A DNA stretch of 64,000 nt, from the sequence record PV435126.1; one strand, given 5' to 3'. Shown here one piece after another: positions 1 to 3,154 of the stretch. This stretch comes from Escherichia phage EPFV3-03/2025. The translations under genes and the position numbers were made by a program. The first letter of the stretch is position 1. Every line of letters starts with the position of its first letter. A model generated the notes under the pieces. The model was not told where the DNA came from. It saw nothing but the letters and a program-made list of their open reading frames with translations, and made no database searches.

Positions 1-373
1 TTGTCACGGTCCGGCGGCGAAAGGATTCGAAATCGATGGTAAACTAATTATTGTCAATGTTGACGGGGAAGAGGTTGCAGTATATCCGGTGGCAGACGTT
101 AAAAGCCGTCTACAATGCCGCATGGATGTTACCGCCTATCAGCTTGATCCGGTCCGCATAGTTGCCCTGGTCCTGGAAGAAGAAATTAAAGCAATGCACC
201 ACAGCAACAAGTTTATTGGTGACGCTCAAGATAATATGAAGGTATGCCGCCATAAAGTTAATGAAGTGCTTAAAGAATATGGCTTTAAAGATCTGATGAT
301 CAAACGTGAGGAAAAATTCCGCTACCGTAACGACCTGGCAAATCGGATTTTTGAAATATACGAATCATTATAA
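1..373 (+). CDS. hypothetical protein, 5' partial (frame open to window start)
   Basis: ORF 89..373 has no in-frame stop upstream to position 2; followed by a hairpin plus T-run terminator. Confidence 0.5.
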   Translation, partial: CHGPAAKGFEIDGKLIIVNVDGEEVAVYPVADVKSRLQCRMDVTAYQLDPVRIVALVLEEEIKAMHHSNKFIGDAQDNMKVCRHKVNEVLKEYGFKDLMIKREEKFRYRNDLANRIFEIYESL

Positions 374-391
374 TTTTTTAACTGAATTATC

Positions 392-416
392 AAGGGGCTT
401 AGGCCCCTTTCTTTTT
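392..416 (+). terminator. rho-independent terminator
   Basis: aaggggc/gcccctt stem with ttag loop followed by T-run, directly after the stop at 373. Confidence 0.6.
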
Positions 417-1167
417 GTCTGCTCTTCCCCATACCATAAACGGCCCTACCTGACAAGTGGAATAATTGACGAGCCATCAATCCCGCACACTGTACAAATA
501 TACATGTAAAATAGCTATTGCATAACCTTTCATTGTGTGGTAGCGGTGCTATTTTTACCCGTTTTCTCTCCCAAAATTGCACGTAATGCAGCTATTGCAC
601 AAAATTTAACCTGATGCACATCTTCAGTATACTGTCAACAATTAAAAATCTTTATAAGTCATACACTTACACAAACCAAAAAGCGTGTCCTACGTGAAAA
701 ATCGGGTGTAACTATAGCCGACAGATCTCAGAATCCACGTACAATCACCATTCTATAGCCTGCAAAGTATTTATTCCAACCACAGAATAACGGAATAGTC
801 AATACTTGTATAAAATAATTATTCGTGTAAACTGCATAACATAAATCTTCTCATGTGTCAACATTTTTCGTAAACAGTCCGAAATTGTCACGATAGGTTA
901 CTATAATCAGAGAAATCTTTAGTCGTCTAATGTTTACTGTACATAACTATACTGACTGGAATCATTAGATGACTAAGAGAAAGATAAGAAATAATTAACA
1001 ATGTAATTGTTTTATCTGCAACAATAAGGCAACTATGCAAACGAATGGCATGGCGCGACGGAGTCGCGACATAATATAAAAGCAGTAACCATCACCCCCG
1101 TGATAGTTTGTCTGCAATCTATTAATCAGATCATAGTTGCCTTGTATTTAGTTAATCATGACATAAC

Positions 1168-1207
1168 AAGCAGGGCAACTATAGATCTTCTAATAGTTGC
1201 CCTGCTT
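1168..1207. repeat. perfect 15-bp inverted repeat with 10-nt spacer
   Basis: aagcagggcaactat / atagttgccctgctt arms around agatcttcta; the GCAACTAT core recurs nearby in both orientations. Confidence 0.8.
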
Positions 1208-2938
1208 TTATATTATGTCATATATTATTAACTTGTCAATTGTCACCTTGCTAATTGTTTTCATGCAAACGAATGTCATGGCTTATCATCTCTGTGTAAA
1301 CTGTCAATGTGTAAACAGTCTACGCAGGAACAATCTATACGTGAACAGTGAAACATGAAATAATAACAGTCGTTATTGTGTCGAAAGTGTCGTATTGTGT
1401 GACATTGTGTCAGACAAGTTTTTCTCCTCTTTGTCAAGTGCTGCATGGAAAATTTACAATCTGGTATGGTAGCATTTTTGCGGCCCCGTTTACATGCATG
1501 AGTGTATGTATAATCCTTGTTGTGTGGGCGTTTAGACGTCTGGACGGTCAGAAGTCCGCAGGTTAATATCTAATCTATTGGTCGCTAACTATATCCACCA
1601 CAAATAATAAGAAATACAATTGTTATATTCGTAAACAGTAACCCATGTTATCAATCCCTGTATGTATCGCCAGTGGTGCGCATAATGGGTATTATGTTAA
1701 ATTGCCCGTAATGATAACGATTCTCACAATGATAAGTATTCTCATTCATCCACACAAAATAGCTTGCAAATGTTGTGCCACTGTGTGAACGGCCTCGCCT
1801 ATTAATTTGCCTCACTGCCCCGATATTTGAGAATTGTTATAAGAATGAGAAGTATTCCCATTCCGTCCGCCTGGCAGCACTCCAGTCGCTACCGGCTCCT
1901 GACAGGGTAGCACTCCTGTAGGACAAGCACAAAATCTGGGCATAACTGGACCTGTTCAGATATTTCTGGCTGACTCTTCAGGTCTGTGTGGGAAAAGCCA
2001 ACCTCTCCGGCGGGGCAGGGGGGGTCTGCATGGCAGATTTCACCTGGAGCGAAACCCTTAAGGGTAAGATGGGGTGGTATTACAGGAAAAATTGCAGGTC
2101 AATTAAAAAATTTACGTGGTGTATGAAGCCCTCTTCAGGCAGGGCGTGTATTATGGGATGAAACCCTCTTCAGGTGATGATATTTGTGGGTGTGATATTT
2201 GCTGGAAAGCCAGATATGACGGGGCTCCCGGCGGGGATGGGGTAGTACAGGCAGGGAAAATGTGGGGATGTGGTGTGGTAAATTGATCAGGCAGGTAGGA
2301 TATGGAATATGTTACAAGTATGTTAAATATGGAGGTAGGATATTTGTAAGATTTGTGTGTAAAATCAAATACTTATGTGGTGTTGTGGTATTTTCTATAA
2401 ATAATTCAAGTTTAATAGGTGATATTTGTCTCCATCTACTTTGTGTGGTAAACAGATTCTAATTGAATTGGTTTACAAGTGTATATAAAGTATACAAATT
2501 AAAGATATAAGAAACCCCCCTCCCCCCTTCGGCTACCATTCACCTTTTCCTCTGACTGGTACTTAAACACTTATTCAGACTCTTCAGGTTATCACCCATA
2601 TATCATATGGCAGTGACTGGTGTCCTCCGGCCCCTCTTTCGTCACCCGTCCGCTTCGCCATGCTAATGCCATAGCTAACTGTTCGGTTGTTCACCCTGTT
2701 CACTCAGGTGTATCTCCATACCCCTTCAAACCGAAGAGAACAGAAAACCCGAATTACTCGGTAAAAGAAAAGAGAAGAACTTAATTTTATCAGGATAGGC
2801 AAGAATGTCAAGGCATGACTGCTCACTAAACAAGCAAACAGTCATGTGTGGGAGGTAAGTGATTGTGGTGGTAGGAAATTTAGTTGAAAGATGTGTTATA
2901 GGTGCTTCCAGCACTTTAGCCTGGCAGCTAATTGTGTG

Positions 2939-3154
2939 TCAGTCCAGCGGTTCATCCTCTACTTCACTGAAATCAATGTTCATGGTCTCTTCCCAACCAT
3001 CGATCTCAGCACAAGAGTGGAGTTCTTTAGGGTTTACTCCCAAAGCCTCAGCAACAGAGTCTATATTTAACACCTCTGGCAGGTATGATTCATCGAATTC
3101 AAGGTAAATCAGGCCACGAGTGTTGTCAGCTCCACCAAATATTTCTATCTTCAT
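2939..3154 (-). CDS. hypothetical small acidic protein
   Basis: 71-aa ORF starting MKIEI; last gene of the minus-strand block. Confidence 0.45.
   Translation of the reverse strand: MKIEIFGGADNTRGLIYLEFDESYLPEVLNIDSVAEALGVNPKELHSCAEIDGWEETMNIDFSEVEDEPLD

Follow-up and report, generated by a model that had tools for sequence, protein, structure and literature searches.

A hairpin in Escherichia phage EPFV3-03/2025 is one arm of a conserved branched fold beside the terminal repeat of rV5-like phages

RESULTS

We analyzed a stretch of 64,000 nucleotides of Escherichia phage EPFV3-03/2025 (sequence record PV435126.1; hereafter the window, with position 1 as its first letter), in which a perfect 15-bp hairpin at 1168-1207 stands among several copies of a short motif. 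We found that this hairpin does not stand alone but forms arm P4 of a branched, conserved fold spanning ~165 nt (1054-1218), in which base pairing has been kept in relatives whose sequence has been replaced. Covariation was seen in five of the six helices, and pairing within a single strand is the only reading that explains it. We infer that the fold acts as a single-stranded nucleic acid, most likely RNA, which we favor because RNA is by far the commonest cause of covariation of this kind. The function that we tentatively prefer, with confidence a little short of even, is to halt transcription ahead of the terminal repeat of the genome, by folding at the RNA level. No description of this fold was found in the literature that we searched, and it appears to be an undescribed element, a new, well-supported family of structured noncoding element in a known class of phages; there is some real prospect that it is a less usual one, bound up with genome ends.

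The window comes from an rV5-like phage (Vequintavirus), and positions 400-2900 are matched by 121 phage records at 90-95% identity. The hairpin region sits in a gap of ~2.5 kb without genes. To the left of this gap are plus-strand genes, which end at 373 and have a terminator of their own at 392-409, and to the right are minus-strand genes, which end at 2939. Kropinski et al. drew the gap as a "non-coding" box in 2013, without an explanation; the bidirectional terminator that they expected to lie between genes 163 and 164 was not found (PMC3606486).

The hairpin and the motif copies are parts of a larger fold

An initial annotation of this DNA had described four copies of a motif, in both orientations, and the perfect hairpin formed by two of them, and had proposed either a cluster of binding sites for a dimeric DNA-binding protein or a bidirectional terminator. 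All four copies are present, GCAACTAT at 1029-1036 and 1175-1182 on the plus strand and its complement ATAGTTGC at 1133-1140 and 1193-1200, and a motif search of both strands of the 64 kb returned six occurrences of GCAACTAT (2.4 expected), four of which fall within 172 bp. The true repeat unit is an 11-mer, A(A/G)GGCAACTAT, which with at most one mismatch has six matches against 1.35 expected, a number reached in none of 100 shuffles. A fifth copy, AGGGCAACTAT, lies at 158-168 (minus) inside the coding sequence of open reading frame 164 (ORF164), where it covers the codons R-I-V-A-L; it is probably a coding coincidence, since sister lineages encode R-V-V-A-L.

The hairpin itself also has the form first described. 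AAGCAGGGCAACTAT (1168-1182) and ATAGTTGCCCTGCTT (1193-1207) are complementary at 15 of 15 positions around a 10-nt spacer, AGATCTTCTA, that contains AGATCT, and when folded as RNA with short flanks the structure reaches -32.3 kcal/mol (z = -9.5). The G at 1173 occurs only in this phage; in 17 of 17 aligned relatives that retain the element, an A at this position produces an A.C mismatch in the hairpin.

Within the same 260 bp, we identified two inverted repeats, two hairpins, and one direct repeat that the initial annotation had not listed (Table 1). The arms of the closing stem P1 lie within the two arms of the 18-bp inverted repeat, 1068-1085 for the 5' side and 1202-1219 for the 3' side, and P1 is built of A/T pairs only in its outer part and is GC-rich in its inner part. 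Motif copies 3 and 4 pair with one another to make up helix P4. The 15-bp hairpin amounts to P4 plus six lower base pairs that compete with P3 and inner P1. The bases concerned can form either this hairpin or the P1/P3 pairings but not both at once, and several alternative pairings are available within the element in this phage.

Pairing is conserved where sequence is not

Variability was measured across 16 genomes. The element (1020-1222) has 12% variable columns, compared to 30% in the left part of the gap, 36% in the neighboring gene, and ~97% in each of the two stretches to its right (1223-1262 and 1283-1400). Its longest invariant runs, at 1049-1089 and 1191-1221, cover both arms of the 18-bp inverted repeat. 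The element is present in a single copy per genome, having been found at 120 places in 119 records.

Two relatives, an IMG/VR phage (L006) and a phAPEC8-like contig (L008), have DNA downstream of the gene for a 139-amino-acid protein that cannot be aligned to the window, and each carries, at the same distance from that gene, an inverted repeat of like design (Table 1). The L008 version is present in 133 records, from Phapecoctavirus, Justusliebigvirus, and Klebsiella relatives. When nine such sequences were folded with RNAalifold, the result was a GC hairpin followed by a 16-bp closing stem around three arms. Compensatory changes occur in 15 of the 50 pairs of these nine Stephanstirmvirinae sequences, and 97.1% of cells are paired; this was matched by 0 of 500 shuffles, and slid controls gave 1-3.

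A covariance model built solely from these nine sequences (phAPEC8-like and phi92-like) matched the window at 1041-1223 on the plus strand with 44.5 bits (E ~3e-8), its sole match in the 64 kb. All other Vequintavirus loci scored 37-49 bits, and L006 was matched weakly, at 18.5 bits. We then combined 24 distinct sequences, including those of Vequintavirus, in an alignment fitted to the covariance model, a procedure that favors pairing counts; in this alignment compensatory changes were counted in 29 of 50 pairs, against 4-7 for slid controls, and 97.9% of cells are paired. Even the close relatives KP13-26 and KP2025 differ entirely in the sequence of one hairpin while keeping its stem. The stem equivalent to P3, for its part, is sequence-invariant in Stephanstirmvirinae.

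Inserts in relatives are restricted to loops or to positions just outside P1. A 33-bp insertion occupies the P3 loop in rV5, LL12, and phita32, Justusliebigvirus and KP2025 have hairpins of ~20 nt in the loop of the arm equivalent to P4, and other inserts directly follow position 1222. Five relatives (L009, L013, L020, L002, and L019) carry small inserts rich in short hairpins at the equivalents of 1164/1165 and 1222/1223, exemplified by TAAACTCAGGCATAGCCTTCGTCTCGAGGATGT in the P3 loop and GAAACACCCGAAGGGGTGACC...CCTGGCATAGCCAG just outside P1; they look like small mobile or slippage-derived hairpin cassettes.

The 20-bp direct repeat has no site in the 64 kb beyond its two copies, DR1 and DR2, and direct repeats flank the element in Vequintavirus, in L006, and in two Phapecoctavirus genomes. 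In phage FV3 (L010, 1836-1856, corresponding to window 1035-1282), exactly the 228 bp between DR1 and DR2 are gone and one copy of the repeat is kept. This deletion is unique among ~119 Vequintavirus records; it may reflect genuine recombination, or it may be an artifact of sequencing or PCR across a highly structured template.

A search of Rfam 15 with window positions 300-3100 or with L066, L068, or L070 gave no relevant match at E values up to 1, which excludes known families only, and ARAGORN found no transfer RNA or transfer-messenger RNA. A metagenome scan with the 18-mer returned mostly chance single matches and three rV5-like contigs, and scans of IMG/VR returned two to four contigs each. 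Two further explanations were considered and rejected: mimicry of a host sequence, as there was no match in 5,426 E. coli genomes, and a miniature transposable element, as there is one copy per genome, syntenic across subfamilies, and the direct repeats stand 13 and 43 bp away from the arms of the inverted repeat.

The fold lies beside the terminal repeat

The records of EdH4 and ECP2309, which come from different laboratories, start and end with sequences that are 100% identical over 459 bp and share the same boundaries. Given that the homologue of this direct terminal repeat lies within the gap (Table 1), we conclude that the gap contains the physical genome ends. In window orientation, the fold stands 185 bp to the left of the terminal repeat, within unique DNA, and the right terminus of the virion DNA is ~650-820 bp away from it. 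A 2026 paper, by contrast, inferred headful packaging for a Vequintavirus (PMC13211470). Inside the repeat, an 18-bp unit, AATGATAACGATTCTCAC, is repeated 1.9 times at 1710-1744 and is annotated as a repeat_region in nomo and Alma.

Short terminal repeats have also been reported in Stephanstirmvirinae, with lengths of 328 bp (PMC6563267) and 342 bp (PMC12210895) and in a general statement (PMC12695924). EmilieFrey, a phi92-like phage, carries the element at 1516-1699; the terminal repeat annotated in BME3 maps there to ~2008-2349, which leaves ~310 bp between them. The fold thus lies to the left of the terminal repeat in phi92-like phages as well, the sole sister lineage whose repeat could be placed. 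Because the BME3 record has an odd layout at its end, only its terminal-repeat coordinates were used. That record (L078, PP239276 145600-147371) has a second copy of ~415 bp at its end, after a breakpoint inside the element, and a "DTR-L" feature at its right end, a layout unlike that of a simple terminal repeat.

In all lineages compared, the element is downstream of plus-strand genes. In the sister phages of Stephanstirmvirinae, the genes on both sides of it share one strand, and convergent transcription is therefore not a conserved context.

Transcription signals around the fold

On the plus strand, the 15-bp stem is followed by TTTTATATTAT, which gives it the anatomy of a rightward intrinsic terminator, and the GenBank record of Alma annotates this hairpin as a terminator. 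The initial annotation had pointed to a following TTTTAT; the letters are there, although the first two T's still belong to the end of the stem, and the sequence reads CTGCTT and then, beyond the stem, TTATATTAT. A simple terminator scan missed the hairpin solely owing to its 10-nt loop. Its U-tract is on the plus strand only, the minus strand continuing as GUUAUGUCAUG. On the minus strand, a second hairpin (1115-1082; -17.1 kcal/mol) is followed by the same 18-nt tail. A terminator is thus a plausible reading for this phage, but what the two hairpins look like is a pair of separate, interdigitated one-way terminators and not a single bidirectional hairpin. Around the whole fold, the P1 arms form an A-tract/U-tract pair, and the 3' arm reads on the plus strand as the T-run after the hairpin and on the minus strand as TGaCATAAT, which is extended -10-like.

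The minus-strand sigma-70-like match at 1239-1212 (Table 1) has a conserved -10 element and a -35 element that is not conserved, owing to insertions and deletions in relatives. We considered a minus-strand small RNA running from 1205 to ~1075, with this match as its promoter and its own terminator, and rejected it: the -35 element is not conserved and the P1 5' arm would be missing, and initial support from plus-strand A.C mismatches in two local hairpins disappeared on the consensus structure, where G.T and A.C are balanced. A phage-specific promoter in the inverted-repeat arm was also discarded, as no other site in the 64 kb matches CATAATATAAAAGCAG, not even when three mismatches are allowed.

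TABLE 1 Coordinates of the fold, its repeats, and adjoining features in the window
Feature	Position	Strand	Description
GC hairpin	1054-1059 with 1063-1068		CGCGAC-GGA-GTCGCG; abuts P1; 5 of 7 model pairs of the homologous helix covary
Closing stem P1	1069-1084 with 1203-1218		16-18 bp; 8 of 16 pairs with compensatory changes
Arm P2	1085-1089 with 1136-1140		Encloses an unpaired C-rich run (CACCCCC) and hairpin P2a
Hairpin P2a	1103-1110 with 1115-1122		One T.T here; perfect in relatives with A1118
Alternative local hairpin H1	1087-1095 with 1100-1108		Extended by 1082-1085 with 1112-1115
Arm P3	1141-1145 with 1166-1170		20-nt loop
Arm P4	1174-1182 with 1193-1201		Core of the 15-bp hairpin 1168-1207; AGATCT in loop
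Motif copy 1	1026-1036	+	11-mer AAGGCAACTAT; outside the conserved fold; perfectly complementary to 1132-1143
Motif copy 2	1133-1143	-	Contains the 3' side of P2
18-bp perfect inverted repeat	1068-1085 / 1202-1219		GACATAATATAAAAGCAG
12-bp inverted repeat	1026-1037 / 1132-1143
Second hairpin	1087-1108
20-bp direct repeat	1035-1054 (DR1), 1263-1282 (DR2)	+ (both)	ATGCAAACGAATGNCATGGC; 2 matches against 0.01 expected
Inverted-repeat arms, window			5' GACATAATATAAAAGCAG, 3' CTGCTTTTATATTATGTC
Inverted-repeat arms, L006			5' GACATAATAACGCTGAG, 3' CTCAGCGTTATTATGTC
Inverted-repeat arms, L008			5' GCTAATAATAAGCCA, 3' TGGCTTATTATTAGC
Sigma-70-like match	1212-1239	-	TTGACA-16-CATAAT with TG, 11/12
Hypervariable spacer, fold to terminal repeat	1283-1402		Degenerate GTGTAAACAGTC-like repeats
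Homologue of the 459-bp direct terminal repeat	1403-1871		Boundaries GACAAGTTTTTCTCC... to ...CCGTCCGCC

Other features of the gap and its flanks

The most variable DNA of the gap (1223-1400, 1880-1940, and 2020-2100) adjoins the terminal repeat on both sides and is marked by insertions and deletions and by degenerate GTGTAAACAGTC-like repeats; TRF did not detect the degenerate 15-bp repeats to the right of the element, and the 12-mer was not enriched across the window. At 2020-2100, the identity of the window to the other 16 genomes is just 0.03-0.16, which points to replaced or inserted DNA in this phage or in few phages. Farther to the right, a 360-bp block (2500-2860) is nearly invariant in 16 genomes, with invariant runs of 71, 45, and 60 bp and no conserved open reading frame evident. 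The strongest promoter-like match of the gap (2811-2784, minus; TTGACA-16-TAAAAT with TG, 11/12) is located there and faces the terminal repeat and the fold; this block may be another noncoding RNA or an early promoter region.

Window positions 1-373 encode the C-terminal part of the homologue of rV5 ORF164, a 139-amino-acid protein of phrog_12277, a PHROG to which no function is assigned. The protein is also encoded in L006 and L008 (3833-4252) and is 88-93% identical there, though the adjacent noncoding DNA cannot be aligned; as the last gene before the genome end, it may be under unusually strong conservation or may have been exchanged recently. The proteins flanking the gap gave no significant Pfam domain and only PHROGs of unknown function. 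About 19 GenBank records of "Campylobacter phage" (MG0656xx, UNVERIFIED, host C. jejuni) are 90-95% identical over this region to rV5-like or phAPEC8-like phages of E. coli and are probably mislabeled or contaminant genomes.

DISCUSSION

What the fold may do

The function we lean toward, without reaching even confidence in it, is that the fold stops transcription at the RNA level before it enters the terminal repeat. Rightward transcription would arrive from the plus-strand genes upstream, and leftward transcription from promoters located on the side of the terminal repeat. RNA is also favored by the location of the element downstream of plus-strand genes in every lineage and by the strong minus-strand promoter match at 2811-2784, which faces it. 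With its A-tract and U-tract pairing around a clamp rich in GC, P1 would make a transcript of either strand a stable structure that ends in a U-rich tail. Such a structure and tail on both strands would be expected to stop transcription ahead of the terminal repeat or the concatemer junction, and the product would be an RNA with a structured and stable 3' end, or else a small, discrete RNA. In EPFV3-03/2025, two ordinary terminators would be embedded in the fold, 1168-1207 with its tail for rightward transcription and 1082-1115 with the same tail for leftward transcription.

Several of our results weigh against this reading. Departures from Watson-Crick pairing by G.T and by A.C are about equally frequent (5 G.T and 9 A.C cells in the nine Stephanstirmvirinae sequences, with both kinds fixed in different helices across lineages), so that neither strand is favored, unlike what is expected of a single-stranded RNA under selection. 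A plain terminator could do without the three arms inside the fold, the GC hairpin next to it, and the direct repeats on its flanks, and the upstream genes already possess their own terminator. In the homologous regions of four relatives (L008, L066, L006, and L070), a simple scan found no terminator-like site, only the U-rich 3' arm of P1 being kept, and no strong sigma-70 promoter was found at homologous positions. The sole recurrent promoter-like match has its -10 element inside the outer P1 arm, and its RNA would therefore be without the P1 5' arm.

The main rival reading, possible though on the unlikely side, is that the fold is instead a cis element of genome-end biology that forms in single-stranded DNA, at resected ends, on displaced strands, or on the lagging-strand template. 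Candidate roles at the DNA level include duplication of the terminal repeat, concatemer processing, recognition by terminase, and priming of replication, with the direct repeats as putative protein sites. The balance of G.T and A.C is what would be expected if both strands or the DNA itself matter, the outer part of P1 is made of A/T pairs only, and transcription signals are not conserved. Proximity to the terminal repeat is conserved wherever the repeat can be placed (185 bp in Vequintavirus and ~310 bp in a phi92-like phage), despite the differing orientation of the downstream genes, and the element is flanked by direct repeats in Vequintavirus, L006, and two Phapecoctavirus genomes. There is also a precedent in T7, in which a hairpin DNA intermediate is reported to contain the terminal repeat (PMC4281155, citing Chung and Hinkle 1990). 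However, the distance to the boundary of the repeat varies and the DNA between is hypervariable, stems of 5-9 bp would not extrude from duplex DNA, and covariation over several helices, frequent as it is in RNA, is seldom seen in the DNA of double-stranded phages. FV3, moreover, has been propagated without the 228 bp, which argues against necessity if the record is correct and not an assembly or PCR artifact.

A more specific proposal, and one that we regard as doubtful, is that the element is a dedicated genome-maturation component of large myoviruses with short terminal repeats, either as a packaging or processing RNA with its gene next to the genome end, comparable in function to phi29 pRNA, or as a single-stranded DNA cloverleaf that duplicates or delimits the terminal repeat. 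Such a cloverleaf would serve, for example, as a primer, as a marker of a nick site, or as a stop to end resection.

We consider it improbable that the element is a gene for a structured small RNA acting in trans, apart from termination, as a packaging-motor RNA, a decoy for a host or defense factor, or a regulator. Its size of ~150-165 nt, the helix that closes it from both ends, the multi-way junction, and the strong covariation are what such an RNA would have; it is present once per genome and, to judge from FV3, is dispensable. The gene for the packaging RNA (pRNA) of phi29 also lies close to an end of its genome, and it is the structure of that RNA more than its sequence that is conserved. 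Yet we found no promoter from which both P1 arms would be transcribed, neither strand is visibly preferred, and there is no Rfam match, a search that speaks to known families only.

Least probable is the cluster of operators or iterons for a sequence-specific dimeric protein proposed at the outset: there are four copies of the 11-mer in both orientations within 180 bp, one of which (1026-1036) lies outside the fold and is not explained by pairing, the block is invariant within the genus, loops included, and the P3-equivalent stem does not vary in Stephanstirmvirinae, but the motif is replaced in L006 and Stephanstirmvirinae with its pairings kept by compensatory changes (29 of 50 pairs), KP13-26 and KP2025 keep a stem of entirely different sequence, no further copies stand upstream of genes in the 64 kb, and the flanking proteins have no known DNA-binding domain. 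Since pairing is kept while the motif changes, base pairing explains the motif copies better than protein half-sites do, and with five covarying helices, several different co-evolving dimeric proteins would be needed.

Why the element matters

The rV5-like, phAPEC8-like, and phi92-like phages are widely isolated and are used in phage-therapy collections, and more than 250 GenBank records carry the element (119 + 133). A noncoding gap that had been blank since 2013 now has the physical genome ends placed within it, and beside the terminal repeat a single-copy fold supported by covariation has been defined, whose coordinates and covariance model make its function testable. If the fold is a terminator or insulator, it would explain how transcription of the right arm is kept off the concatemer junction, and it would supply the terminator that Kropinski et al. 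sought between genes 163 and 164. If instead it works in processing of the genome ends or in packaging, phages with terminal repeats would have in it a cis or trans element of a new kind.

Comparison with known systems

We know of no structured sub-terminal element of this kind described in terminase-using tailed phages, and each of the systems to which the fold can be compared resembles it only in part. Like cosB of lambda and iteron clusters, the element has a repeated motif in both orientations within ~180 bp and lies a few hundred bp from the terminase cut site; unlike in those systems, its motif copies are explained by pairing, and the motif is not conserved where pairing is.

The pRNA of phi29 is a structured RNA encoded near the genome end, with paired 5' and 3' ends and a multi-way junction, and its structure is conserved more than its sequence. 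The present fold is like it in size, closing helix, multi-way junction, and location. In contrast, the motor of phi29, a podovirus with protein-primed replication, requires pRNA, whereas the terminase of rV5-like myoviruses is of the ordinary kind, and our fold has no sequence or Rfam similarity to pRNA and no known promoter or transcript.

The right end of T7, with its inverted repeats and pacB, offers another parallel, as T7 is also a genome with short terminal repeats and has inverted repeats in the unique DNA to the left of the right-hand repeat. These are short and imperfect (10-12 bp, located 50-160 bp to the left of the terminal repeat) and form no branched fold, and processing in T7 depends on transcription by T7 RNA polymerase. 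The element described here, on the other hand, is absent from FV3.

Intrinsic terminators share with the element a GC-containing stem, here of 15 bp, followed by UUUUAUAUUAU on the plus strand, and a second hairpin with an identical tail on the minus strand, and bidirectional terminators have pairable A-tract and U-tract arms, as P1 does. They differ in that sister-lineage homologues of the fold give no match in a simple terminator scan, and in that the clamp here closes not a simple loop but a three-arm junction of ~120 nt; moreover, covariation conserves five helices, far beyond what termination needs.

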